Origin: Clostridia bacterium
Lineage (GTDB): Bacteria; Bacillota; Peptococcia; DRI-13; UBA5745
Reading direction: 5' to 3'
Assembly: GCA_018436095.1 (NCBI GenBank)
Contig: JAHDMJ010000005.1
Coordinates: forward strand, 76,400 to 140,399
DNA: 64,000 nt
A model generated the notes under the pieces. It searched no databases. It was not told where the DNA came from and was given only the letters and a program-made list of their open reading frames with translations. The first letter of the stretch is position 1. Every line of letters begins with the position of its first letter. Below are positions 2,847 through 53,493 of this stretch, one piece after another. Made by a program: the position numbers and the translations under genes.

Positions 2847-4253
2847 CTAGTAGCCGATCTTTATGGCAATGAACAAGAAGACGAAGGCCAGGACGAAGAA
2901 GATCAGCATTAAAGGAACGAAGAACTTGTACCACTTGTTCAAAGGTACTTTGCCGTAATTCAGGAAGATCAGCAGCGTCCCATAGCTGAACCAGAACATG
3001 TTGGTGATGCCGTCGCCGAACTGGTAAGCCAGCACCGCCGTCTGAGAAGTCAGACCCAGGGAAAGGGCGATAGGCACAATGATGGGACTCAGCAGAGCGC
3101 CCTTGGCGCTGCCGGAAGGAATCAGACCGTTAATGAAGCTTACGATAATGATGATGAAGATCGCGGCCACAAAAGGCGACAGCCCTTCCAGAAGCCTGGT
3201 GACGTTGTAAATAATGGTTGCGTTGATATTAGCCGTATTCATCACCCAGAAAACGCCCCGGGCTACGCCTACCACTAAAGCGCCGCCGATGGAGCCTTTA
3301 GCGCCGGCGATAAAAGCATCGGCAATGACGCCGGCTTTCATGCGGGTGATTACACCGGCGGCCAGGCCAGCCAGGAAAAACACGGCAGATACGTCATCGA
3401 TAACCCATTTCACACCATTGATACCGTACTTCATGCCGATGACCGTAAGGATCATAGCGACGAGAACCGTCAACAAAACGCAGGTCTGGGGCAGCGTTAG
3501 CTTTGTATTTTCCGTGTCAGTGGTTTCCAGCCGCAGATCCTTTACGTCCACGTCATAAACCAGGCTGGTTTCCGGGTTCTTGTGGGTTTTGGCCGCATAA
3601 ACCAGGATATAAATTACGCTGATTACTGTAATGGTGGCCCAGACCACCACCCGCAGGCCCAAGCCCACAAAAAGATCGCTGCCCTGAGGCAGTATGCCCA
3701 TTTGCTGCAAGATACCATTGGCAACGCCTACGGTATAAAGGTTGGTAGGACCGGCGATAAAGCCGCCCATGGAGCCTACGGTAACAACGGCTACCGCCGT
3801 CAGGCTGTCATAGCCCAAAGCCAAAGTCACCGCTACCACTAAAGGCACGAAAGGAATCAAAACCTCAATCCAGCCCAGGAAGCCGCCAACTGCCGAAAAG
3901 ACCACAATCAGGATGGTCAGCAGCATGGCTCTGGAGCTGCCGCCGAAACGGTGAACCATCTGGGTAATACCATTATCGATGGCGCCGCTGCGTTTAAAGA
4001 TTTCCAAAGCGCCGCCTACGGTAAGAATCAGGATGACGATATTGGCGGAGTCTTTAATGCCGTAAGGAATAGCCCGGAAAATATTAAATACATTATTAAA
4101 ATTAAAAACATTTCGGGGCAGGGCCTGGTAGACGCCGTCTTTTAACGTGCCCGGCGTCACCAAAAAGGTCATCAAGCCGCAAAAAACAACAACGCCGAAA
4201 ATGAGGACAAAAGGATTTATGGATAAGGGCTTTTTTTCTTTTTTACTATTCAT
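2847..4253 (-). CDS. YfcC / DcuC-like (C4-dicarboxylate anaerobic carrier family) permease
   Basis: 468 aa polytopic membrane protein. The N-terminus (KKPLSINPFVLIFGVVVFCGLMTFLVTPG) resembles YfcC-family proteins, which commonly sit next to M20 hydrolases. Confidence 0.6.
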   Translation of the reverse strand: MNSKKEKKPLSINPFVLIFGVVVFCGLMTFLVTPGTLKDGVYQALPRNVFNFNNVFNIFRAIPYGIKDSANIVILILTVGGALEIFKRSGAIDNGITQMVHRFGGSSRAMLLTILIVVFSAVGGFLGWIEVLIPFVPLVVAVTLALGYDSLTAVAVVTVGSMGGFIAGPTNLYTVGVANGILQQMGILPQGSDLFVGLGLRVVVWATITVISVIYILVYAAKTHKNPETSLVYDVDVKDLRLETTDTENTKLTLPQTCVLLTVLVAMILTVIGMKYGINGVKWVIDDVSAVFFLAGLAAGVITRMKAGVIADAFIAGAKGSIGGALVVGVARGVFWVMNTANINATIIYNVTRLLEGLSPFVAAIFIIIIVSFINGLIPSGSAKGALLSPIIVPIALSLGLTSQTAVLAYQFGDGITNMFWFSYGTLLIFLNYGKVPLNKWYKFFVPLMLIFFVLAFVFLFIAIKIGY

Positions 4254-4284: not shown

Positions 4285-5490
4285 TTATTTCTTGGCCAAA
4301 TCAGCCAGAGTTTTCGTCAGGGCAAGATAGCCGATGGTACCTTCCGCCATCATAGCAATATCAATATTGTCCTCGGTGGTATGGCAGCGCTTGATTTCTG
4401 CCGGTGAATAGCCTAAGCACTTAATGCCTTTGGCGGCAAATTGTCCCGTATCGGTGGCAAAGGCCCAGGGCTTGGCTTGTACAGGGCGGCCCACCACCTC
4501 TTCTAAAGTCTTGAGAGCCAGCTGAATATATTCCTCATTGGCGTCCACGCTGAAAGGAGGTTCGCCCTGGAAGGCTTGTCCCTCATAACCCGTATAAGTA
4601 GTTAGCGGAAAATATAGGGTTTTCAATTCCACGGTGATACCGTCTACGGCGCAGCGGTCTGCCACTGCCTGGATCTTTTTCAGCACGTTTTCTTCCGTAT
4701 CATCCCCTACCTGCCGGTAATCAAGGTAAAGCACCACCTCATTGGGAATAATGTTGGTACCCTTTTCGGAAGAAGAAATCGACGTGGCGGACATAGTGGA
4801 TTGGCCGAAAAGACTGTCCTTGGCCATTTCCACCGTGGGCAGCTCCAAGAGGAACTTACCCAAAAAATCAAAGGGGTTTTTGCCTTCATGGGGTATGGAG
4901 GCATGGCAGGATTTGCCCTTGATGGTCACCACTACGCAGCAGCGGCCCCGGCTGCCGATAGCAATGTCATTTTCCGTAGCCTCGCCTACGATGCAGTAAT
5001 CGGTAAGCTTAAAATTTTCCCGCATCTGCATCATAGCGCCGAAGCCGGCAATCTCTTCCGCCACAACACCAGCTACCACAATATCGCCTTTGGGCAGAAG
5101 GCCGGCCTTTTTTAACATCACCGGCGTATAGAGCTGAATAGCAAAGGTGCCTTTGGTATCCGAAGCCCCCCGGCCCCAGATCTTGCCCTCGGCTATAGCG
5201 CCGCTGAAAGGCGGATATTGCCATTTTTCCGGATCGCCCTCATGGACCACATCCAAATGGCAATTCAGGGTAACGGAGCTGCCGCCGCCGGTGCCATAGA
5301 CAGTGCCAAAAACACTGCCGTAAGGGTCCACCACTACCTCATCATAGCCCAACTCCCGCATTTTGGCTGCGGTGTATTCTGCCATAGCCTTCTCCTGGGT
5401 AGACTGGGAATTAATCTGAATCATTTCCGAGGCGGTTTTGATGATGTCCTGTTCGTACTCTTTTGCCAATTGAATAAGCGTTTCTTTCAA
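4285..5490 (-). CDS. M20-family metallohydrolase (ArgE/DapE/YgeY-like)
   Basis: 401 aa with the HLDVVHEGD metal-binding motif, WGRGASDTKG and GEATEN, as in ArgE/DapE/ACY1 peptidases. Confidence 0.8.
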   Translation of the reverse strand: MKETLIQLAKEYEQDIIKTASEMIQINSQSTQEKAMAEYTAAKMRELGYDEVVVDPYGSVFGTVYGTGGGSSVTLNCHLDVVHEGDPEKWQYPPFSGAIAEGKIWGRGASDTKGTFAIQLYTPVMLKKAGLLPKGDIVVAGVVAEEIAGFGAMMQMRENFKLTDYCIVGEATENDIAIGSRGRCCVVVTIKGKSCHASIPHEGKNPFDFLGKFLLELPTVEMAKDSLFGQSTMSATSISSSEKGTNIIPNEVVLYLDYRQVGDDTEENVLKKIQAVADRCAVDGITVELKTLYFPLTTYTGYEGQAFQGEPPFSVDANEEYIQLALKTLEEVVGRPVQAKPWAFATDTGQFAAKGIKCLGYSPAEIKRCHTTEDNIDIAMMAEGTIGYLALTKTLADLAKK

Positions 5491-5506
5491 GCTTGCTCCC
5501 TCCTTT

Positions 5507-6703
5507 TTATATACTTTTTAAGGCTTTATCCAACTCAGCCAGGATATCCTCGATATTTTCGAGACCCACTGAGAACCTTATCTGACCCATGGAAATACCG
5601 GCTCTGGCCATCTCCTCTTCCGTCAAGGCCCGGTGAGAGGTTTTGGCGGGATAAGAGGTGGTGGTGGTCACTCCGGCCAAGCTGGGCACCAGCTTAATGG
5701 TTTCACAGGCTTTCACAAAAGCGGAGGCGCCTTTTTCGCCGCCCATAATGTCGGCGCTGAGCATACCGCCGCAACGGCCTTCCGCAAAGGTCTTCTGAGT
5801 CCGTTCATAAAAAGGCGAGGAAGACAAGCCGGGATAATAGACTCTTTCGATTTTGGGGTTCTTTTCCAAAAACTCGGCTACCTTCAAAGCATTGGCGCTA
5901 TGAAGCTTCATGCGCATCTCCAGGGTCCGCAGGCTTCTGGATAAAAGCCAGGCGTCAAAAGGACTCATGATACTGCCGTATAAAGTATGGAAAGGCCGCA
6001 TATGTTCAATTTCCTCTGCGCTGGCCATCACGGCGCCGCCCACAATGTCGCTGTGGCCGCCCAGGTATTTGGTGGCGCTGTAAACGACAATATCGGCTCC
6101 CATTTCCATAGGCCTTGCCAAAGCAGGGGTGGCAAAGGTATTATCCACCACCAATTTGCAGCCGTGGCTATGAGCAATAGACGCCAGCTTGGGCAGGTCC
6201 ATCACTTCCATGAGAGGATTGGAGATGGTTTCCGTATAAATCAGCTTCGTATTGGGCTTGATATACTTCTCCACGTCCTCCTTGATCATATCTACGAAAT
6301 CCACTTCCACCCCAAAACGGGTAATCTCCGTTTTTAAGTAAGTGTAGACGCCGCCATACAATACGGGGTGGGACACGATATGGTCGCCGGCCTTGACATT
6401 GGCCAAAATGGTGGTAATAATGGCGGCCATGCCGGAGGAAAAGGCCAAAGCGCCGCCGCAGTTTTCCGCCGCCGCCAAAAGCTGGCAGAGGGCGTCGGTG
6501 CCGGGATTGGCCATCCGGGAATAAACGTAGCCCTCGGCCTCGTTCTCATAGACGGCGTCCAGGGAGGGTACATCGTCAAAAGAAAAAACCGAACTTAAAT
6601 AAATAGGGAGAACTTTGGGGGTGGAAACGCCGGCAGCCATTTTTTTGACGAACTCCGTTTCTCCTGCATGGGTAAGCCGGGTCATCATTCCTTTTTCTTT
6701 CAT
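5507..6703 (-). CDS. Cys/Met-metabolism PLP enzyme (methionine gamma-lyase / cystathionine gamma-synthase family)
   Basis: 398 aa with the PLP-lysine motif YSATKYLGGHSD and the conserved N-terminal block SVFSFDD...YSRMANP. Confidence 0.85.
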   Translation of the reverse strand: MKEKGMMTRLTHAGETEFVKKMAAGVSTPKVLPIYLSSVFSFDDVPSLDAVYENEAEGYVYSRMANPGTDALCQLLAAAENCGGALAFSSGMAAIITTILANVKAGDHIVSHPVLYGGVYTYLKTEITRFGVEVDFVDMIKEDVEKYIKPNTKLIYTETISNPLMEVMDLPKLASIAHSHGCKLVVDNTFATPALARPMEMGADIVVYSATKYLGGHSDIVGGAVMASAEEIEHMRPFHTLYGSIMSPFDAWLLSRSLRTLEMRMKLHSANALKVAEFLEKNPKIERVYYPGLSSSPFYERTQKTFAEGRCGGMLSADIMGGEKGASAFVKACETIKLVPSLAGVTTTTSYPAKTSHRALTEEEMARAGISMGQIRFSVGLENIEDILAELDKALKSI

Positions 6704-12594: not shown

Positions 12595-12660
12595 GACAAA
12601 ACCCCTTTCTTAAAATATATTGTAATGCGAGGAAAATGCCTCAGCCAAAGGCTGGGTCGG

Positions 12661-12890
12661 GGGCACTGAAAAAGCTGCCTCAGTCTCAGCCGGGTGTACA
12701 AAATTTGAAGTATTATGTGGTTCGCTTTGTTGAAATAGGTATTTCAATCCTACTTAGACACTAAATGCAGGAAAAGGACGGTGCTCAGGGCGGCAAAACT
12801 TGAAATTCCGAGCAGTTAGCTGAGGCAAATACACATAATACCTGGTTTTTTGTACACACGGCTGGATAGGAAGCGACTTTTTCAGTGCCC
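12661..12890. mobile_element. 230-bp MITE-like non-autonomous element, copy A
   Basis: Imperfect terminal inverted repeats of about 60 bp: GGGCACTGAAAAAG..CAGCCGGGTGTACAAAA..GTATTATGTG at the left against the reverse complement at the right. No ORF. Flanked on both sides by TCGG / GGCTGGGTC. A full-length homologous copy lies in opposite orientation at 41389-41618. Confidence 0.7.
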
Positions 12891-12922
12891 TCGGCTGGGT
12901 CAGCCTTTTTGTGCTTTCTTCC

Positions 12923-37717: not shown

Positions 37718-37762
37718 TCATCCTTCAATTGCCTGCTGAACAGCCTTGATCTTTGCCGGCGG
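37718..37762 (-). pseudogene. Vestigial diverged copy of the last 14 codons and stop of the aminotransferase gene
   Basis: Encodes PPAKIKAVQQAIEG*, against AAKIKAAQKAIEG* at the true gene end (38315). Nucleotide identity is about 70% by eye. Homology stops exactly where the repeat block begins. Confidence 0.6.
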
Positions 37763-37925
37763 ACATACGCACCCTAAGTTCTTAGGATAGCGGATTGTAT
37801 CCGTAGGACTGTATCCGTAGGACTGTATCCGTAGGACTGTATCCGTAGGATTGTATCCGCAGGAACATCCGCGCCCTAAGTGCTCAGGATAGCGGATTGT
37901 ATCCGTAGGATTGTGTCGTTCCGTA
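37763..37925. repeat. Higher-order tandem repeat: 32-33 nt unit plus 14-nt unit TGTATCCGTAGGAC x5, then the 32-33 nt unit again plus 1-2 further 14-mers
   Basis: 14-mers run from 37796 to 37865. ACATACGCACCCTAAGTTCTTAGGATAGCGGAT (37763) recurs as ACATCCGCGCCCTAAGTGCTCAGGATAGCGGAT (37865). Confidence 0.9.
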
Positions 37926-37973
37926 GTCCGCCTATGTTCTGAGCAATACCCCTCGGGCGATTCTGTACAATTT

Positions 37974-38240
37974 TTTCGGTTGTACGCGTTTTCCGGATTC
38001 GGCCTGTACAATTTTTACGTTTGTGGGTGAATTGCAGCGGCTTCCGAGGCCATTTTTAGCCAGTTTCAGCCAATTGCAGGCCGATTTGGGGCAATTTTTT
38101 CGTCCACGCCAGAATATCTCTCCTGCATTTCACATATAAACGCAATTTTTGTACACTTGACCTCTGACAGCGGCATACAAATGCAATTTTTGTACAAACT
38201 CGCCGCCAAGGGCCATCGCCGGCAGCGCCGGGAGTCATTG
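37974..38240. repeat. Degenerate member of the 41-bp-phased repeat family (TGTACA-type motifs) plus one GC-rich unit
   Basis: TGTACAATTTTT at 37974 and 38015 (41 bp apart). GCAATTTTTGTACA at 38152 and 38193 (41 bp apart). The GC unit CGCCGCCAAGGGCCATCGCCGGCAG at 38209-38240 resembles the 37-bp units at 52115-52198. Confidence 0.7.
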
Positions 38241-38314: not shown

Positions 38315-39568
38315 TCAACCTTCGATAGCTTTTTGGGCCGCTTTAATCTTTGCCGCTAGCCCCGGCATTTTGCTTTTGGGCACGGCGCAGACCGCCAGGC
38401 GAACACCCTTGCCCATAGCTACCAGATAAATATTTTGCTCCATCAGTTTAGCGCAAAGAGCCTTGGGATCTTTGGCCGGAATAGTGATGAAAAAGCCGCC
38501 AAAATAAGGCAGAATCTTCAAATCCGCTTCATTTGCCTCATCCACAAAGATTTTGGCCCGCTCAATCAAAAGGTCAACTAAAGCCCCTCTTTCCGCGTCG
38601 GCTCTGGCTGAAAGCTGAGAGTCATTATTGATCTTGGCCAACAGCTCCTGGGCTCCGTGATTGCCGTTAGACCAGGCGCCCCGGGCGGAATAAGAATGTA
38701 TGTTGGTAAAATCCTTCATCACTGCCGCCGATTGATGGCAGCCCACAATAGCACCGCTGCGCATACCGTAAACGAAAAAGGATTTCGACATGCTAAAAGC
38801 GATAACTATCTGCATGTTTTCCGGCAGGTCCGTGAACATACTTAAAAAGCGGCGGGCTTCCTTGGGATCGCCGCAATAATCCACATAGGCCATATCCAGG
38901 CCGATAACGATTTTCTTGCCGCTTCCCATAGCCAGATTCTTGAAAAAGGGAATCAAATCCGCCCAGTCGGATTCTGACAAGCTGTAGCCTGTAGGGTTAT
39001 GGCCGGGGGTATTGAATATCATCAGCAACTGGCTTTGCTTTTCTAAATATGCCTGAGCCTTGGCTTTAATATCTTTGGTGGTAAACTGCAGTTTCTCGTC
39101 AAACATCTCATAAGTGGCATAGCCTCTTTGACATTCTTCAGCAATGGTTTTATAAGGAGCCCAAAACCAATCGGGGATCAAAACCGTCTCCCCTTCGTCC
39201 AGATAATTAAAGATCATCAGGCGGACAGCCCCGGTACCCCCTGGGGTAGCAACGGCTGCGGCAGTGGTGTCTGCCGGCTGAAAGCCCTGGAAAGTATAAT
39301 CAATGGCTGCCTGAATAAACTCCGGAGAGCCGCTGATGGTGGCATAATCCATCAAAGTCTCTGCCGGTAACCGGCGGAATTCTTCGTCCACTACCGGCAA
39401 TATGCTGAATTCGCCGTCCTCGCCCCGCATGGCGCCGATGGATCCATCTATAATATTCTCTGCCCCCGGCAGCTTTTTGGCTTCTCTGATTTTTGCCACC
39501 ACGGCAAATACGGAATCCGGTTCGCTGCCTTTACCTGCAGCATGCCTTGCAGCCATCGATTCTAACAT
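38315..39568 (-). CDS. Class I/II aminotransferase (aspartate/aromatic type)
   Basis: 417 aa with PLP lysine context AFSMSKSFFVYGMRSG and FNTPGHNPTGYS. Confidence 0.8.
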   Translation of the reverse strand: MLESMAARHAAGKGSEPDSVFAVVAKIREAKKLPGAENIIDGSIGAMRGEDGEFSILPVVDEEFRRLPAETLMDYATISGSPEFIQAAIDYTFQGFQPADTTAAAVATPGGTGAVRLMIFNYLDEGETVLIPDWFWAPYKTIAEECQRGYATYEMFDEKLQFTTKDIKAKAQAYLEKQSQLLMIFNTPGHNPTGYSLSESDWADLIPFFKNLAMGSGKKIVIGLDMAYVDYCGDPKEARRFLSMFTDLPENMQIVIAFSMSKSFFVYGMRSGAIVGCHQSAAVMKDFTNIHSYSARGAWSNGNHGAQELLAKINNDSQLSARADAERGALVDLLIERAKIFVDEANEADLKILPYFGGFFITIPAKDPKALCAKLMEQNIYLVAMGKGVRLAVCAVPKSKMPGLAAKIKAAQKAIEG

Positions 39569-40942: not shown

Positions 40943-41136
40943 CTGAGGCGGTGAAGCAGTGGGTTGGCAAGCCGGCGAGGCAGTGAGGGGCAGCCTGAGG
41001 CAGTGGGTAGTAGCCTAAGGCAGTGAGTGGCAGCCTGAGGCAATGAGTGGCAACCTGAGGCAGTGAGTGGCAACCTGAGGCAGTGAGTGGCAACCTGAGG
41101 CAGTGGGTGGCAACCTGAGGCAGTGAGTGGTAAGTC
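40943..41136. repeat. Tandem 20-bp repeat GAGGCAGTGAGTGGCAACCT, 8 clear copies plus 1-2 degenerate
   Basis: Units start at 40977, 40997, 41017, 41037, 41057, 41077, 41097 and 41117. A single related unit occurs at about 52215-52236. Confidence 0.9.
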
Positions 41137-41142
41137 AACACT

Positions 41143-41388
41143 CAAAATTTCAACTTTGTACCCGACTGCCAGGCATTTTGTGCAAAATTGCAAGTTTGTA
41201 TCCCTTATTCATGCAATTTTTCGCTTAAAGTTTCAGATTTATGGTATAAATAAACTTTTTCCCTCATAATTTTAAATTCAAGGCATATTTTGGCTAGACA
41301 AACCTGCAATTTTGCACAGTTAGCCTAAGCGAACGGGAACAAACCTGCAATTTTGCACATTTGCCAGGGAAACGGGTTGACAAACTGA
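41143..41388. repeat. Opposed 41-bp-phased motif arrays around an AT-rich 88-bp core (copy 2 of the family)
   Basis: AAAATTTCAACTTTGT at 41154 and AAAATTGCAAGTTTGT at 41194. The reverse complement ACAAACCTGCAATTTT is at 41298 and 41339, with a truncated ACAAACTG at 41380 (spacing 41, 41). Confidence 0.8.
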
Positions 41389-41618
41389 GGACACTGAAAA
41401 AGTCGCTTTCCATCCAGCCAGGTGTACAAAAAATGAGGTTTTACGTTTGTTTGCCTTAGCTAACTGCCAATATTTCAAGTTTTGCCGTACTGATCACCGT
41501 CTTTTGCCTGGATTTAGTGTCTAAGGCGGATTAAGTGCCTATTTTAATAGCGCGAACCCCACAATACTTCAAAATTTGTACATCCGGCCATAACCACTAA
41601 GGCTCCTTTTTCACGGTC
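41389..41618. mobile_element. 230-bp MITE-like element, copy B, inverted relative to copy A
   Basis: Colinear over its whole length with the reverse complement of 12661-12890. Examples: GGACACTGAAAAAGTCGCTTTCCATCCAGCCAGGTGTACAAAAAA against GGGCACTGAAAAAGTCGCTTCCTATCCAGCCGTGTGTACAAAAAA, and ATTTAGTGTCTAAG shared internally. Its last 22 bp are the final codons and stop of the ABC gene. Confidence 0.7.
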
Positions 41619-43324
41619 AGAAGCCGGCCGCCCATGAGGGCCACCTCGTCCTGACTATGGGTCACCATCAGCGTGGTAATGCCTTGGCTGTATTGCCGGA
41701 TATAATTGGCGGTCATCTCTTTATTTTGCTCATCCAGCCCTTTGAGGGGCTCATCCAAAAACAACACCTGGCCTGCTGCCAGCACGGCCCGGCAAATAGC
41801 CACCCGGCGCCGCATACCGCCGGAAAGCTCCCGTACCGGCTGCTCCAGGCTGTCTCCCAGACCCAAGGCTGTCAAATGAGCGGTTATGGCAGCCGGGGCG
41901 GTTTTTTTGCCGCAGGCAAACCCGATATTGGCTATAGCATTAAAGCTTTCGCAAAGCCGGTCCTCTTGAAATACGGCGCTGATCTTCAGGCCTGCCAAGC
42001 CTGTGATGCTTCCGGCATCCGGCTGCTCCAGGCCCATTAAAATGTGGAGCAGCGTGGTCTTGCCTACGCCAGAATCCCCCATGATGCAGGTGCAGTTGCC
42101 CCCGGAAAAGGTGGCGCTGTAATCCTGCAATACTTTTTTATTGCCATATACTTTGGTAAGCCCTTGCACTTCAATATCCGGCAAAGGCTGGGAAAAGCCG
42201 GATCCTGCCGGCAGCACCGGGGTTTCAACGGCAGGCTTCGAAGCCTGGGCTACAGCAACCCCCGGCAACGACCTCTCGCTGACGGAAGGCTCTACCTCCG
42301 GCCCATCTTCCAGCCCCCCGGCTTCCTGTGTCCCGGCTTCCGGCATCCCGGCTTCCTGTGTCCCATCTTCCAGCCCCCCGGCTTCCTGTGTCCCGGCTTC
42401 CTGCATCCCAGCCCCCAGCGTTCCGGCCTCCAGTGCGCCGGCCTTCGGTGCGCCGGCCCAAAGCCCCCGGCCGGCGGCAACAGAACCGGCATTCACCGCT
42501 GGCTCATACCTGCCTATACCCTCCAATTTGCGGTAAGCTATTTTGATGAGGGCGATAAACAGCTTTTCAAAAGCCACACTGATCAAAATAATTACCGCGG
42601 TCCAGGCAAAAAGATCCTGGGCATTAAGATATATCTTGGCTTGATACAGCATCTCGCCGATAGAGCCGCCGGGAATACCAATGACTTCGGCGGCGATACC
42701 GGATTTCCAGGTCATGCCAAGAGATATGCTGCAGGCCGAAAGCAAATAGGGCTTTAACTGGGGCAGGTAGATATAGACCAGCCGCCGGCCCCAGCCGGCC
42801 CGAAAAACCGCCGCCATCTCCAGCAGATGCCGGTCGGTACTCCGTATGCCTTGCAGCATATTGGTATAAATAACGGGCAGCACCATCAAAAACGAAATGA
42901 TGATTGATAAATTGCGGGAACCCCACCAGATCAGGCAAAGAATGATGAAGGAAGCCACCGGCGTGGCTTTAATTACCGTGATGTAGGGCCAAAACAAAGT
43001 CTCCAGCAAAGGAAAACGGCCGGCAGCCGCAGCTAGCAGCGAACCAAGGGCTAAAGCGGCAAAAAAACCGGTGACAATCCGGCTGAAAGAAAACCAAACT
43101 GTCTGCCAAAAGCTCAACTGGCTCCATAAGGCTAAAAGCCTGCGGAATACCGCCGCAGGCGTAGCCACCAAAAAGCCGCCCAAAACTACGAAGTGCTCAA
43201 ACAGCATAGCCCCCAACTGCCACAGAATCAGAGCCAGCAATACGGAGAATAACAACGGGTATCTTCGTTGGTTCTTTAATCCTTCTTTATTTCTGGTAAT
43301 AGAAATCATCTCCCGGCAGAGCAC
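41597..43324 (-). CDS. Fused ABC transporter permease-ATPase (NitT/TauT family) with a repetitive A/G/E/Q-rich linker
   Basis: 575 aa. The N-terminal half is a BPD-type permease. The linker is EAGTLGAGMQEAGTQEAGGLEDGTQEAGMPEAGTQEAGGLEDG (DNA tandem repeat at about 42290-42420). The C-terminal ATPase has GDSGVGKTT, LSGGMRRR, LFLDEP and VTHS. The start may be ATG 43309 (MISITRNK). Confidence 0.8.
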   Translation of the reverse strand: MLCREMISITRNKEGLKNQRRYPLLFSVLLALILWQLGAMLFEHFVVLGGFLVATPAAVFRRLLALWSQLSFWQTVWFSFSRIVTGFFAALALGSLLAAAAGRFPLLETLFWPYITVIKATPVASFIILCLIWWGSRNLSIIISFLMVLPVIYTNMLQGIRSTDRHLLEMAAVFRAGWGRRLVYIYLPQLKPYLLSACSISLGMTWKSGIAAEVIGIPGGSIGEMLYQAKIYLNAQDLFAWTAVIILISVAFEKLFIALIKIAYRKLEGIGRYEPAVNAGSVAAGRGLWAGAPKAGALEAGTLGAGMQEAGTQEAGGLEDGTQEAGMPEAGTQEAGGLEDGPEVEPSVSERSLPGVAVAQASKPAVETPVLPAGSGFSQPLPDIEVQGLTKVYGNKKVLQDYSATFSGGNCTCIMGDSGVGKTTLLHILMGLEQPDAGSITGLAGLKISAVFQEDRLCESFNAIANIGFACGKKTAPAAITAHLTALGLGDSLEQPVRELSGGMRRRVAICRAVLAAGQVLFLDEPLKGLDEQNKEMTANYIRQYSQGITTLMVTHSQDEVALMGGRLLTVKKEP

Positions 43325-51156: not shown

Positions 51157-51936
51157 TCAAATGACCAACAATCTCAAAGATTTTACACAAGGCAGGTATA
51201 ACGGATAACCTGCAGCCGCCACCTCAGGCGGGCTGTCCAGCAGGTTTATGTCCAAATGGCTATCGATAGCTTTTTCCAGCTCCGGCGGCAAAAGGACCGG
51301 CAGGACAGTATCTTCGTGAGGATTGTCGCCGCAGACAGGGGACAGCAGCTCCCGGTTATAAAAACGCAAAAAACATCCGGCATCTTCCCGGTTTAAGAAA
51401 GGCTGCCCAAAAGAAAGGGTCAGCTTTTCTTCTTTATAGGCAATGTTTTCTCCTCGCAGATACATGGCGCTGTCTTCGGCAGAATGATTTTTCTTGCGGT
51501 TAGACACCCCAAAATTCTTTTGCCTGCTGTCCGAAGTAATGAAAATAATGGGGCCTTTAATCCATTGCCTCAGTCTGGGCAGCACTTGGGCAAGGCGTCC
51601 AAAAAAACAAAGGACAGCGGCGTCATACATCGCCGGCGGCGGCTCAAGCTTAGTGAAATCACCATTAACTGTCAAAACGTTGTTTACCTTGCGGCGCAAA
51701 ACCTCATTGTTCAGCCAATCTATAGCCTCGAGGCTGATATCCAGGGCCGTAACCTCTTTGGCATGAGGCGCCATAGCCAAAGAAAGATAACCAAGACCGG
51801 CGCCCAGATCAAAGATCCGGGCCCGGTCCCGGTTTGGGATATACGATAACACTTTTTCCGCCAATAACTGATGGTAATTATGGGTAGCCGCCGCCCGCCG
51901 GTACCATTCGATGCTTTCGCCGGTCCAAAAAATCAT
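51157..51936 (-). CDS. Class I SAM-dependent methyltransferase
   Basis: 259 aa with motif I RIFDLGAGLGYLSLAMA and motif II VTALDIS. Confidence 0.75.
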   Translation of the reverse strand: MIFWTGESIEWYRRAAATHNYHQLLAEKVLSYIPNRDRARIFDLGAGLGYLSLAMAPHAKEVTALDISLEAIDWLNNEVLRRKVNNVLTVNGDFTKLEPPPAMYDAAVLCFFGRLAQVLPRLRQWIKGPIIFITSDSRQKNFGVSNRKKNHSAEDSAMYLRGENIAYKEEKLTLSFGQPFLNREDAGCFLRFYNRELLSPVCGDNPHEDTVLPVLLPPELEKAIDSHLDINLLDSPPEVAAAGYPLYLPCVKSLRLLVI

Positions 51937-52114
51937 GAAATTCCTTTCGCCCTGCCTCTGGCAACAGATGATCCTACCGCCTGTCTCCGGCAGCAGATGA
52001 ACACCGTTCTTCTATCGAATTATTCGATGAAGCAATTTGTTTTCAGTAGTATAGCCCCGGCTAAGGTTTTTGTCAAATAAAAAACGGCGCCGAGGCTATA
52101 GGAGGCGGTCACGG

Positions 52115-52198
52115 CTGCCGCCGGGGGCATGGTTGCCGGCCAGGAATACGACTGCCGCCGAAGGGCATGGTTGCCGGCCAGGGGTACGGTTGCCGAGG
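52115..52198. repeat. GC-rich 37-bp tandem repeat, 2 copies plus a partial third
   Basis: CTGCCGCCGGGGGCATGGTTGCCGGCCAGG at 52115, CTGCCGCCGAAGGGCATGGTTGCCGGCCAGG at 52152, and partial GGTTGCCGAGG at 52188. Confidence 0.85.
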
Positions 52199-52205
52199 CA
52201 AACCC

Positions 52206-52524
52206 AAAATTGCAGGCATCAGTGGAGTAGGGAGTCATGGCTAACACTCAAAATTGCAGGTTTGTCGTTGTTCGCATAGTCTAACTGAGCAAAAATGCAG
52301 GTTTGTTGTCGTTCGCATAGGCTAACTGAGCAAAATTGCAGGTTTGTATACCTCTAAATCCCTGCTTTGGAACGGCTTTGGCCCGCAAATGGGGTAAAAA
52401 CCCTATTTCCAGGCCAAAATACCTTTTACAAACCTGCAATTTTGCTCAAAATGCCACGACCCTGGAAACAAACTTGCAATTTTGCACATTTCCAAGTACA
52501 TGCCGGCTACAAACCTGCAATTTT
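52206..52524. repeat. Opposed 41-bp-phased motif arrays around an ~80-bp core (best-preserved copy of the family)
   Basis: AAAATTGCAGGTTTGT at 52250, 52291 (one mismatch) and 52332, with a partial copy at 52206. ACAAACYTGCAATTTT at 52428, 52468 and 52509. Confidence 0.85.
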
Positions 52525-52544
52525 TGTACAAAAATTCGTTTCAC

Positions 52545-52573
52545 AAAAAAAGAGGGCGGTTGCGCCCTCTTTT
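52545..52573 (-). terminator. Rho-independent terminator after the DUF3298-like gene
   Basis: AGAGGGCG-gttg-CGCCCTCT. Seven T follow on the minus strand and TTT on the plus strand. Confidence 0.8.
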
Positions 52574-52590: not shown

Positions 52591-53493
52591 TTAGCCTAAA
52601 GGAAAAAGCTCTTCATCGGATTTCTGCTCTTGCAGGGTCTCATCCTTCGCATTTGTCTCATCAGCCGCATCAGACTCATCCGCTTGATCTGCCACACTTG
52701 CCGCACTTGCTTTATCAGCCGCATCAGCCTCGCTCATTTCCTCTGCCTCATCGGCGGCGGCAGCTTCCTCCGCTGCGGCAGACTCCTGCGAAGCCGCACC
52801 CTCGCCGTCGGCTGCTTGCTGCTCCTCAGCTTCTGCCGGCAGCGGGATCACAAAAGAAGGCCGCCCCATGTAGCCGGGGGCAATCTCATATTTGTCGAAA
52901 AGAATGGTAATGTCTGAGCCGTCCACATAAAATTTGGTCTTCTCGCTGACGCCTTTAAAACCTTCAAACCCATTTTCGCCATTGAAATACTGGCCGGGAT
53001 TAGCCTCAATGGCGTCACCGATGACTTTATCGGCGATGGCAAAGGCCTCGGCTCCCAGGATATCCTGCAAGTTCAGGAGCTTATTTTCATTTTTGTCCAA
53101 CACGAAGGTGGAAAGCTCCTCAAAACGGTTATTGCCGGAAATGGTCATGGCATGAAGGGCAACGGACATGTACCGGGAGTTGCCAAAGACATCATAAGAA
53201 AAAATGACGACCAAGTTTTCCTCTTCCATCTCCCCGGCTTTGACTAAAGCTTCATCGTAAAAAACATTTACTTTGTCGTTTACCTGCTGGGCAAAAAGCG
53301 GATCACTGACCTTAAATTCCGGCAGATGGCCGGTTACTACAATCTCCGCGCTGCCGAAAACCCTGTCGGCTATCGTCAAATTCTCATTGGATGTAATTAC
53401 CCGGTAACTGCCTTCGGCAAAAAGGGGTTGGGCGATTAAAAGGGCTCCCGTCAAGCAGGCAGCAGCTATCGTATGCATCATTCTCTTATTCAA
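52591..53493 (-). CDS. Secreted DUF3298/DUF4163-like (PdaC/RsiV-type) protein with an acidic A/E/D-rich tail
   Basis: 300 aa with a signal peptide. DGSDITILFDKYEIAPGYMGRPSFVIPL is typical of DUF3298. The C-terminal tail is low-complexity and acidic. Confidence 0.6.
   Translation of the reverse strand: MNKRMMHTIAAACLTGALLIAQPLFAEGSYRVITSNENLTIADRVFGSAEIVVTGHLPEFKVSDPLFAQQVNDKVNVFYDEALVKAGEMEEENLVVIFSYDVFGNSRYMSVALHAMTISGNNRFEELSTFVLDKNENKLLNLQDILGAEAFAIADKVIGDAIEANPGQYFNGENGFEGFKGVSEKTKFYVDGSDITILFDKYEIAPGYMGRPSFVIPLPAEAEEQQAADGEGAASQESAAAEEAAAADEAEEMSEADAADKASAASVADQADESDAADETNAKDETLQEQKSDEELFPLG

Follow-up and report, generated by a model that had tools for sequence, protein, structure and literature searches.

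A 64,000-nt stretch of DNA from a Clostridia bacterium (hereafter the window) carries, between the genes for a methyltransferase and a DUF3298 protein, a non-coding element at 52245–52529 built from two opposed arrays of a short motif round a core. An initial annotation had read this locus as three forward and three reverse-complement 16-mers, spaced by 41 and 41 bp and by 40 and 41 bp, with ~80 bp between the two sets, and the reading was borne out by a scan with AAAATTGCAGGTTTGT: allowing up to two mismatches, the window holds 9 matches where 0.06 are expected, and 9 or more were reached in 0 of 100 shuffles. The forward matches lie at 52250, 52291 and 52332 and the reverse-strand matches at 52428, 52468 and 52509, with exactly those spacings, and the remaining three fall in a second element (41184 on the plus strand, 41298 and 41339 on the minus strand). 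TRF reports a 41-nt unit repeated 2.4 times over 52249–52347. As had been stated, no credible ORF crosses the element, the only ones there being 87-aa and 142-aa TTG ORFs.

The left arm comprises three units on the plus strand. The outermost (52245–52265) is a CAC-TCAAAATTGCAGGTTTGT variant, at whose place the MAG orthologue has TGAGCAAAATTGCAGGTTTGT; the second (52286–52306, TGAGCAAAAATGCAGGTTTGT), placed by motif matches and TRF, is followed by an ‘a’-type spacer; and the innermost (52327–52347) is the left half of a perfect 22-nt inverted repeat formed by the innermost units of both arms (52327–52348 and 52427–52448, with 78 nt between them). The class I core (52348–52427, plus strand, 80 nt), which keeps one orientation with respect to the arms, has an imperfect hairpin of its own at about 52377–52418 (TTTGGCC...GGCCAAA). 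The right arm, on the minus strand, consists of an innermost unit (52428–52448) defined by its motif match as well as by the inverted repeat, a second unit with a CAAG variant (52468–52488) and an outermost one with the TGTACAAAAATTGCAGGTTTGT variant (52509–52529). Further out on the left, at 52206–52244 of the plus strand, lies a decayed fourth unit, consisting of a AAAATTGCAGG remnant, which the MAG orthologue keeps, and a spacer tail ending in GGCTAAC. A truncated copy had been reported at 52206 and was recovered as this remnant, and the segment forms the left arm's ragged outer edge. Beside that arm TRF finds a GC-rich tandem array of 38-nt units (52110–52195) whose copy number, in alignment, differs from that of the MAG orthologue; such GC-rich tandem arrays lie no more than 120 bp from an element in 16 cases, where 1.4 would be expected. 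At 52552–52569 a canonical terminator hairpin, distinct from the element, stands next to it.

The window holds five elements in its 64 kb, and the family makes up roughly 2% of it, among chromosomal, housekeeping genes (those for the methyltransferase and the DUF3298 protein, an ABC transporter and an aminotransferase). The second member (41139–41359), whose architecture the initial annotation had already seen near 41154–41387, has two plus-strand units, a class IV AT-rich core (41200–41297) containing TGGTATAAAT, and two minus-strand units. The TGGTATAAAT sequence of this core is extended -10-like. A GC-rich tandem array of 20-nt units, repeated 7.7 times according to TRF, abuts the second member at 40977–41130 and has about three copies in the sister lineage. 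A degenerate recurrence noted near 37974–38206 likewise proved genuine: the third member (37964–38196) has the same layout of two plus units, core and two minus units (37964–37984, 38005–38025, 38136–38155 and 38175–38196), with a spacing of ~41 and a diverged motif, TGTACAAAAATTGC(A/G)TTTGT.

Beside the second member, a MITE ‘B’ (41389–41590) has inserted at AGTTTGT; it has the IS1182-type terminal repeat GAGGACACTGAAAAAG, then an A-like unit and an ‘a’-type spacer. The right end of this copy is degenerate. Another copy of MITE ‘B’, at 12659–12892, is complete: it is bounded by a 9-bp target duplication (GGCTGGGTC, at 12650–12658 and 12893–12901) and has an interior related to the family of phased 21-mers described below. 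Insertions of an IS1182-family IS recur at the end of the 21-mer motif, the putative target of this IS being RGTTTRTNN, and the repeat family is a hotspot for this IS1182-family element. Transposases of the IS1182 and IS3 families were seen at sampled loci, and neither is present in the window.

Anatomy and helical phasing of the family

The anatomy of the family was drawn from 53 copies in ~0.49 Mb, a sample that covers part of the genome and is biased towards elements. The conserved unit is the 21-mer TGnGCAAAATTGCARGTTTGT, in which conservation sets in sharply at the TG and which holds a small internal dyad, GCAA-AA-TTGC (4+4). The 25-nt sequence cgttgttcgcatag.ctaactgagc, which the initial annotation had counted into the repeat unit, turned out to be just one of ~20 spacer clusters: each unit consists of a 21-bp site and a variable spacer of ~20 bp, the spacers form about 20–21 sequence clusters, and some of them are common to different loci. 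All 53 of the 53 elements run from plus to minus, with two opposed arms round a core, over a span of ~110–520 bp that includes a core of 69–153 bp. Each arm has one to five units, its end ragged and its outer units decayed, and some neighbouring units match each other exactly, a sign of duplication in place. The same arms flank at least ten unrelated clusters of core sequence. Within class I, which has 17 related cores, identity amounts to 0.90 in the motif, 0.76 in the core and 0.45–0.66 in the spacers, and these elements are polar, with differing left and right arms. A CRISPR array was considered and rejected. Such arrays have repeats of 23–55 nt, unique spacers of 26–72 nt, a single direction and cas genes; the repeats here are 21 nt long, stand in opposed arrays and are separated by spacers of ~20 nt that are shared between loci.

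Could the inverted repeats belong to an invertible, phase-variable promoter switch, in which a site-specific recombinase would flip a short core lying between inverted repeats of 21–22 bp? A perfect 22-nt inverted repeat round 80 bp matches known clostridial switches, and the class IV core with its extended -10-like sequence would be in keeping with a promoter. However, core and arms keep one relative polarity in all 16 aligned class I copies and also in three orthologues, most copies sit at gene 3′ ends, and dozens of copies with repeated units would be unexpected of a switch, so that this explanation is very improbable.

The helical phasing is stronger than the initial annotation had seen. 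Same-strand spacings are 40 or 41 bp in 120 of 126 cases (95%), although the spacer sequences are unrelated, and the combination of 41-bp phasing with opposed arrays, which that annotation had suggested looking for elsewhere in the genome, is conserved across the 53 copies. Across the cores, whose lengths are quantised at ~10.4 bp, the distances between the arms form eight length classes that fit a 10.4-bp lattice (R = 0.94; 8 of 20,000 random sets as good by Monte Carlo); when each of 10 unrelated core clusters contributes a single value, R is 0.865, with 35 of 50,000 random sets as good. In a post hoc comparison, the centres of the GCAA-AA-TTGC dyads of the innermost units were 10.0–17.0 whole turns apart. 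All copies of the 21-bp motif keep one rotational position on the helix. As a precedent for dependence on phase, Goryshin and colleagues reportedly found, in 1994, that both length and helical twist govern how short IS50 derivatives transpose.

Distribution and behaviour in the genome

The family is spread almost only in one Clostridiales MAG, JBCFAO01, where it occupies at least 49 loci, and in the window's close relative. A scan of 185,579 species representatives listed 69 loci, 49 of them in that one MAG and the other 20 being single matches in unrelated taxa; among the matches listed, the motif family occurs in one species representative. JGI metagenomes, searched with a two-unit pattern, contributed two contigs only, both from the same lineage, for which one source's label gives a bioreactor metagenome. 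The metagenomes SRR13787010, SRR28122454, SRR18006931 and SRR31893356 contain this lineage. Short-read assemblies break inside the elements. Nothing similar occurs among 72,556 plasmid records or 50,697 phages, the viral contigs yielded one chance 18-mer match only, and Rfam gave no gathering-score match over the elements of the window or of 8 loci, with sub-threshold noise only at E up to 10. The description of the repeats as an unrecognised family stands: they match nothing in Rfam, plasmids or phages, and a single MAG has 49 loci or more.

The initial annotation had offered three geometries, namely iterons, centromere-like partition sites and multi-site transposon ends, and of these only the last still agrees with the arrays. 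The F-plasmid sopC site has tandem 43-bp units with one short protein-binding site each and the R1 parC site has two repeat clusters round a core, and the phased direct repeats resemble both. Iterons, however, belong to replication origins beside a rep gene on a plasmid or phage, and these partition sites are single loci per replicon, on plasmids and next to parAB-type genes, whereas the family here has dozens of chromosomal copies in a housekeeping context; no rep or par genes lie nearby (the annotation was right that no Rep or ParB gene is adjacent), plasmids and phages hold nothing similar, and the insertions are polymorphic at ordinary intergenic sites. Plasmid-type iterons or a partition centromere are effectively refuted.

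All elements lie between genes, and solo sites are no commoner than chance predicts. Their flanking gene pairs are tandem in 20, convergent in 11 and divergent in 3 cases (n = 34), which amounts to a bias towards gene 3′ ends and an under-representation of the promoter-rich divergent gaps (3/34). No orientation bias relative to the flanking genes was seen, with five elements in tandem contexts opposite to the genes and three in the same direction. For the three window copies, the orthologous sites are empty or much shorter in relatives, and one is polymorphic between strains. The DUF4363|ABC gap measures 700 bp in the window, compared with 169 bp in the sister lineage; the 91% and 76% relatives have 0–8 bp there. 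The second member (41139–41359) is absent from both of these relatives and is down to a single unit in the sister lineage. The response-regulator|aminotransferase gap, 633 bp here, is 36 bp in strains L082 and L086; the third member (37964–38196) is present in strain L083 (93% identity) and absent from L082, L086, L074, L077 and L078. At the locus described first, 654 bp separate the DUF3298 and methyltransferase genes, versus 207 bp in the outgroup. Fifty complete elements, scanned over all left/right offset pairs 0–29 with words of 3–9 and over matched offsets 0–11 with words of 2–5, show no direct repeat of 2–9 bp enriched at any offset, and the three comparisons of filled with empty sites show no clear target duplication.

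These data bear on the possibility that the arrays are platforms for a host protein (nucleoid-organising, chromosome-segregating or globally regulatory) that were distributed by a mobile carrier and have since come to work for the cell. Phasing on one face, both inside the arms and over the cores, implies a complex of protein with double-stranded DNA, the GCAA-AA-TTGC dyad resembles the sites of HTH dimers, the whole-turn distances between innermost dyads, though post hoc, point the same way, and in one orthologous pair the motif has diverged less (2/59) than the rest (17/127). When orthologous copies are pooled, however, there is no detectable difference between motif (17/185) and rest (32/286; p = 0.54), a result that would fit a selfish element and gives no positive sign of binding. 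A host role is further opposed by a family confined, among the matches listed, to one of the 185,579 species representatives and the window's close relative, by whole elements that come and go between strains and are missing from the 91% relative, and by the lack of solo sites upstream of genes together with the scarcity of divergent gaps; we consider it unlikely. By-eye comparison with the motifs for sigma-54, Spo0A, CodY, Rex, LexA and TnrA gave no convincing match.

As to a partner gene, the initial annotation had suggested looking for a copy in which the arrays bracket a protein gene, and none was found in ~0.49 Mb, a part of the genome biased towards elements; nor was an autonomous IS sharing the element's ends found in that same portion. 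No neighbour gene recurs in an all-against-all BLASTP of the ORFs of 50 loci, in which the only recurrences were ABC transporters, spurious ORFs across repeats and the IS1182 transposase, and no RAYT (Y1 HUH) gene flanked by units was seen among the sampled loci. Half-arrays at three loci (L013, L042 and L067) were tried as transposon ends and rejected, the arrays there being split by IS1182- or IS3-family insertions, which account for all half-arrays.

Folding is strong: the fold potential is −71.6 kcal/mol as DNA (z = −10.2) and −121.8 kcal/mol as RNA (z = −8.8), and the folds include the class I core hairpin, with a few compensatory changes. It is conceivable, then, that the elements act as single-stranded DNA or RNA hairpins of the REP/BIME or IS200/IS605 kind, which an HUH enzyme (RAYT/TnpA-Y1-type) would move without target duplication and which may stabilise or terminate upstream mRNAs. 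The missing target-site duplication in the 50 complete elements and the extragenic, 3′-biased location accord with this. REP/BIME with RAYT share with the family a high copy number, a place outside genes, clusters of varying size, a tendency to attract IS insertions and the lack of a target duplication. REP units differ in being imperfect palindromes of 20–40 nt in alternating orientation; the unit here has only the 4+4 dyad and stands in direct repeats within an arm. The initial annotation's verdict that these are not REPs thus holds for the units, which are not REP-type palindromes, but was too quick for the genome ecology, which is extragenic, high-copy and 3′-biased. Against hairpins as the working form, neither the 10.4-bp quantisation of the cores nor the fixed period of 40–41 bp has a rationale in a loop, and the two arms usually carry unrelated spacers and unequal unit numbers, so that most of an arm cannot pair. 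The RNAalifold covariation term is about zero (−0.06), one motif position has a G.T mismatch in 12 of 18 elements, and the ‘a’-type spacer stem GTTNGC/GCTAAC usually has a central mismatch. Tandem contexts show no orientation bias (5 versus 3), a canonical terminator already adjoins the element at 52552–52569, and Rfam has no matching family. We regard the hairpin explanation as improbable.

Relation to known systems and a candidate mechanism

The ends of Tn7 (TnsB sites), Mu (attL/attR), Tn402/Tn5053 and the IS21 family each carry several direct transposase sites of ~20 bp, the two ends being mutually inverted; such termini start with 5′-TG and end with CA-3′, and left and right ends differ. 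The family here shares the repeated sites, the inverted ends, the 5′-TG and CA-3′ termini and the unlike left and right ends. In these transposons the sites are fixed in number and spacing and the target duplications are of 4–8 bp, whereas the arms here have 1–5 sites in a strict 40–41 bp period and no duplication was found. Staphylococcus aureus STAR elements likewise set a short conserved motif every ~40 bp, with variable spacers, between genes, but their motif is GC-rich, 14 nt long and in one direction only, and to our knowledge no opposed arms, core or phasing lattice have been described for them. Pneumococcal BOX (boxA-boxB(n)-boxC) and Porphyromonas BrickBuilt are similar in being short, non-coding, species-restricted, always intergenic and variable in module number, with inverted-repeat ends. 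Their module, however, is unidirectional and contiguous (BrickBuilt has 23-nt repeats without spacers; PMC4596501), whereas the family here sets two opposed arrays of sites and variable spacers round interchangeable cores.

A similar architecture is that of Drosophila Foldback (FB) and Galileo, which also have long inverted arms of tandem sub-repeats, an arm length that varies by copy and a middle part that is short or variable. The tandem repeats of Galileo hold multiple binding sites for the transposase (THAP), which are proposed to build a higher-order synaptic complex (PMC3688188). Foldback and Galileo differ in being eukaryotic, with arms of hundreds to thousands of bp, target duplications and known autonomous copies; in the family here each unit has a variable spacer, the whole element is phase-locked, and neither duplication nor partner was found.

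We consider it somewhat probable (roughly 55%) that the element is a copy of a lineage-specific, non-coding, foldback-type MITE-like family whose arms are phased arrays of putative binding sites for a trans-acting protein. The elements are, as MITEs are, short (below ~600 bp), non-coding, multi-copy and dispersed; the 21-mer, inverted between the two arms, supplies terminal inverted repeats; presence/absence polymorphism is seen against relatives at the three window loci; and the inverted arms of tandem sub-repeats, of copy-variable length, are those of a foldback element. The family has spread recently between genes in one narrow, uncultured Clostridia lineage. The 21-bp sites are predicted to be bound, as double-stranded DNA, by a protein acting in trans from a gene located elsewhere; it would probably be multimeric and is most likely a transposase- or recombinase-like enzyme. 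That the sub-repeats contain transposase binding sites is suggested by motif conservation and phasing. With sites ~4 helical turns apart within an arm and the arms an integral number of ~10.4-bp turns from each other, such a protein could sit on a single face of the helix and join the arms over a core whose shortness prevents free twisting. Copying would then be limited to elements with motif and phase intact, which may be why these are conserved and spacers and cores are not. Of this picture, the anatomy, copy number, lattice of phased distances, position between genes, restriction to one lineage and presence/absence polymorphism are observed; protein binding, synapsis of the arms and the way in which the elements move are inferred. 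Set against this foldback-type reading are the lack of a target duplication at any fixed offset, together with the ragged arm ends; the absence of an autonomous partner in the ~0.49 Mb, element-biased part of the genome; and the 1–5 units per arm as compared with the fixed number in Tn7 and Mu.

More tentatively, the family may belong to an undescribed bacterial foldback-type mobile system, in which a multimeric enzyme would read phased 21-bp arrays, synapse the arms over a torsionally stiff core and then relocate or copy the element with no target duplication, or the arrays may, after domestication, serve this lineage as a platform for organising its chromosome. If such a mobile system exists, its mechanism would lie outside every catalogued IS family. 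That unrelated cores are trimmed to whole turns and spacers fixed in length suggests that DNA twist may limit the spread of very short repeats, a limit previously known mainly from engineered mini-transposons. The 41-bp unit offers a precise bait for the protein, and activity is predicted to oscillate with core length at ~10.4 bp. For the lineage itself, the family breaks short-read assemblies and drives intergenic variation at the level of strains.

Architecture and distribution of the repeat

The 16-mer AAAATTGCAGGTTTGT occurs nine times in the 64-kb window, against 0.06 copies expected by chance (up to two mismatches). A motif search places three copies on the plus strand (52250, 52291, 52332) and three on the minus strand (52428, 52468, 52509) of one element at 52245-52529, on either side of an 80-nt core (52348-52427). 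A 41-nt tandem unit is called by TRF 2.4 times at 52249-52347, the two innermost units make up a perfect inverted repeat of 22 nt with 78 nt in between, and a truncated motif copy lies at 52206, all in agreement with the opposed arrays described in the initial annotation. The flanking genes, encoding a methyltransferase (51157-51936, minus strand) and a DUF3298 protein (52591-53493, minus strand), are ordinary Clostridia-type genes. The remaining copies, at 41184 (+), 41298 (-) and 41339 (-), belong to a second element of the same layout (41139-41359), and the layout recurs, as had also been claimed, at 37964-38196 with the diverged motif TGTACAAAAATTGC(A/G)TTTGT.

Across 53 elements, the conserved portion of the unit is the 21-mer TGnGCAAAATTGCARGTTTGT, and because, in the outermost units, information content jumps at precisely this TG from about 0 to above 1.3 bits, the elements start with 5'-TG and finish with CA-3'. 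The rest of the unit, about 20 bp, is a spacer belonging to one of about 21 sequence clusters, many mutually unrelated; the 25-nt sequence singled out earlier, cgttgttcgcatag.ctaactgagc, is present but is simply the commonest spacer type. Each arm holds one to five units, and adjacent units at times carry identical spacers, a likeness that indicates local tandem duplication. A CRISPR-like array was considered and rejected, the repeat and spacer lengths being wrong and spacers being common to several loci. The cores likewise cluster into unrelated classes: class I (77-80 nt; 17 copies, including the element at 52245-52529), class II (88-153 nt; 12 copies), class III (151 nt; 9 copies), class IV (98 nt, AT-rich; 3 copies, including 41200-41297 in the window) and several singletons. 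Class I elements are polar, with 'a'-type spacers and a CAGG motif variant confined to one arm, and other spacers and a CAAG variant in the opposite arm; their core orientation is constant (16/16 copies), an invariance that contradicts the reading of the element as an invertible promoter. Mean pairwise identity within class I is highest in the motif (0.90), against 0.76 in the core and 0.45-0.66 in the spacers.

All class III copies sit within a larger element of about 610 bp (5475-6086 of locus L028, with about nine paralogues at L009, L012, L018, L020, L026, L035, L049, L068 and L071), which is sharply bounded on the left, carries 24-nt terminal inverted repeats (CCTGAGTTCCCGCAAAATTAAACC) and includes a second sub-element whose units end in GTTTAA, not GTTTGT; only L028 shows a possible 6-bp duplication, GTGGAT. 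At 3929-3986 of locus L061, a minimal derivative joins a plus unit head-to-head to a minus unit as a perfect palindrome (GCAAAATTGCAATTTTGC), the core apparently having been deleted between inverted units.

An exact scan of one genome per species (185,579 species) found at least 69 loci matching GCAAAATTGCARGTTTGT. Among the 69 matches listed, 49 fall in one MAG, 'Clostridiales bacterium concoct.bin.65' (JBCFAO01), where most loci hold several matches each in the same +,+...-,- layout; the remaining 20 lie in unrelated taxa, as 19 single matches and one locus with two, and about 35 chance matches of this kind were estimated. The window derives from a close relative distinct from this MAG (94% identity over 6.7 kb), and a two-unit pattern retrieved only two contigs from JGI metagenomes, both of the window's lineage. 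The viral contigs searched gave a single match, attributed to chance; the plasmid and phage collections searched held nothing similar to the family, and Rfam held no match. Iterons or a partition centromere, both proposed in the initial annotation, are excluded by the copy number (at least 49 loci in one MAG), the chromosomal context, and the lack of neighbouring rep or par genes and of any similarity to the plasmids searched.

Helical phase of units and arms

Despite the roughly 21 spacer clusters, same-strand neighbours lie 40 or 41 bp apart in 120 of 126 pairs, a period of 3.85-3.94 turns. The distance between the innermost plus and minus units falls into eight narrow classes (87, 97, 107, 117, 128, 137, 160 and 169 bp), and in a Rayleigh scan these arm-to-arm distances fit a period of 10.40 bp best (R = 0.94; periods of 9.5-11.5 bp scanned), a fit equalled by only 8 of 20,000 random sets. 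Restricting the set to a single distance from each of the 10 core clusters that are unrelated in sequence gives 10.45 bp as the best period (R = 0.865), equalled by 35 of 50,000 random sets. Together, the core lattice and the unit period give every motif copy a fixed rotational setting within its element. The dyad (GCAA-AA-TTGC) centres of the innermost units lie near whole-turn distances, a post hoc observation to be taken with caution. The helical-phasing argument of the initial annotation thus gains support from the unit spacings and from a lattice of about 10.4 bp across cores, as does, through the phasing, its suggestion of protein binding, which is predicted from sequence. The lattice and fixed period are the strongest argument that a protein likely recognises the motif in double-stranded DNA, and the lattice further suggests that the arms would have to interact over a core whose shortness hinders free twisting.

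Alternatively, the family could be a REP/RAYT-like or other hairpin-based element, a reading favoured by very stable folds (z of about -9 to -10), by a bias of copies towards gene 3' ends and by the absence of a target-site duplication at any offset around the elements. However, it supplies no rationale for the lattice and the fixed period, and a hairpin loop or RNA is disfavoured because neither has a reason for helical-turn quantisation; moreover, the arms are unequal and mostly non-complementary, covariation is close to zero with a G.T mismatch recurring in 12 of 18 copies, and there is no orientation bias.

Gain and loss among relatives, and neighbouring repeats

Orthologous loci of relatives were fetched via neighbouring proteins, and, judged from the sequences of three orthologous gaps, the elements are insertions that have been gained and lost between relatives. 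The gap between the DUF4363 and ABC transporter genes is 700 bp in the window, where a GC-rich tandem array, the class IV element and a MITE occupy it; the sister lineage has 169 bp, with a few GC-rich repeats and one terminal unit, and relatives with a DUF4363 protein 91% or 76% identical have 0-8 bp. Between the response regulator and aminotransferase genes (633 bp in the window), strain L083 carries the element (93% identity), which is absent from the relatives L074, L077 and L078, and in L082 and L086 the gap is 36 bp with the entire block missing. The block lies between two copies of a direct repeat of about 45 nt (37727-37770 and 38316-38360) that comes from the aminotransferase 3' end; the repeat also occurs in L074, the 91% relative, and as one copy in L082 and L086, such that recombination between the repeats can explain block loss. 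The methyltransferase/DUF3298 gap is 654 bp in the window, the MAG and a metagenome contig, with the element syntenic in all three, and 207 bp in the outgroup (DUF3298 protein 65% identical), which has no element and conserves the methyltransferase promoter TTGACA-17-TATACT. Every element is intergenic; the flanking genes are tandem 20 times, convergent 11 times and divergent only 3 times, and short-read assemblies break within the elements.

Between the element at 52245-52529 and the DUF3298 stop codon lies a bidirectional-terminator-like GC-rich hairpin (GAGGGCGgttgCGCCCTC, 52552-52569) with an A-run upstream and a T-run downstream, not called by a simple terminator scan; found in three close genomes and absent from the outgroup L081, it may have arrived together with the insertion. 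The methyltransferase orthologue of the MAG (L015, 2247-3128) is two adjacent ORFs, which could reflect a frameshift, a pseudogene or an assembly error.

A domesticated platform for a host protein is unlikely, given the extreme lineage restriction and the strain-level presence and absence. No significant protection of the motif after insertion was detected in orthologous copies (differences at 17/185 motif versus 32/286 non-motif positions, p = 0.54), a pattern that would match the decay of a selfish element and offers no independent evidence for host function. Like the target-site duplication, other features of a textbook MITE are missing: outer ends are ragged, with decayed units (e.g., 52206-52244), and the 0.49 Mb examined held neither a protein gene lying between opposed arrays nor a gene family repeatedly adjacent to elements. 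Three half-arrays that seemed promising as transposon ends were rejected, as they are arrays split by other insertion sequences.

All five observed copies of a 1.6-kb IS1182-family insertion sequence (L002 1849-3472; L057 322-1945; L070 1-1321; contig ends of L013 and L067) are inserted where a repeat unit has its 3' end. The insertion sequence encodes a 486-aa transposase (360 bits versus NF033551) and has the terminal repeat GAGGGCACTGAAAAAG; RGTTTRT opens its 9-bp target duplication (AGTTTATAG in L002, GGTTTGTAA in L057), with GGTTTGTAG at the sole visible IS-array junction of L070, which suggests target specificity for the motif in a sample biased towards motif-containing loci, the only ones fetched. 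An IS3-family element (L042 339-1797; 377.7 bits versus NF033516; rve and HTH domains) interrupts a spacer between two units and so divides an array. MITE 'B' (12659-12892, with the target-site duplication GGCTGGGTC at 12650-12658 and 12893-12901; also 41389-41590, and L043 7215-7452) has IS1182-type terminal repeats and a 9-bp duplication, and its interior is homologous to the opposed-array family (unit GTGTACAAAAAATGAGGTTTTA, then an 'a'-type spacer ...GCTAACTG); by these similarities it is apparently chimeric, combining IS ends with an array element that was captured. There are also mini-versions of 70-80 bp (e.g., L037 460-530).

Unrelated tandem arrays of short period (11-53 nt), mostly GC-rich, neighbour the elements at 52110-52195, 40977-41130 and 37792-37864 in the window and in 16 further cases at other loci (e.g., L063 1742-1943, L049 7177-7280 and L065 6425-6525); a distance of 120 bp or less from an element was counted 16 times versus 1.4 expected. 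Many hold CACTGCC/GGCAGTG, and their copy number varies among close relatives (7.7 versus about 3 units; one extra 38-nt unit). Since a repeat related to 37792-37864 occurs in element-less outgroups, such arrays do not in every case belong to the insertion. The coding region of the fused permease-ATPase, the ABC transporter ORF at 41597-43324 (minus strand), contains a 15/30/60-nt tandem repeat (CTTCCTGTGTCCCGG..., 42292-42458); this ORF has 575 aa in the window versus 494-547 aa in relatives.

A proposed phase-reading enzyme

With a probability of about 85%, in our estimate, the repeats form a non-coding family that is restricted to one lineage and polymorphic for insertion; by type it is a foldback or MITE-like intergenic repeat. 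For its propagation we lean, by a little over even odds, towards a trans-acting enzyme that reads helical phase. Such an enzyme, encoded elsewhere and probably multimeric, would bind the 21-bp sites cooperatively on one helix face, bring the arms together over the short core, and copy or move the element. Selection during propagation would preserve the motif, the unit spacing of 40-41 bp and core lengths of whole turns, leaving all other parts to drift, duplicate or be exchanged. Multi-site ends are known from Tn7, Mu and IS21, and short IS50 derivatives reportedly show helical-twist dependence. The arms of Galileo and Foldback-like elements carry multiple transposase-binding sites in tandem repeats (PMC3688188), and BrickBuilt, a Porphyromonas MITE, has a modular structure containing repeats (PMC4596501). 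What endures of the initial interpretation is its phasing, its putative protein binding and its transposon-end-like character, with the iteron and the centromere set aside. The unusual and well-supported property of the family is helical phase-locking over unrelated cores and spacers.
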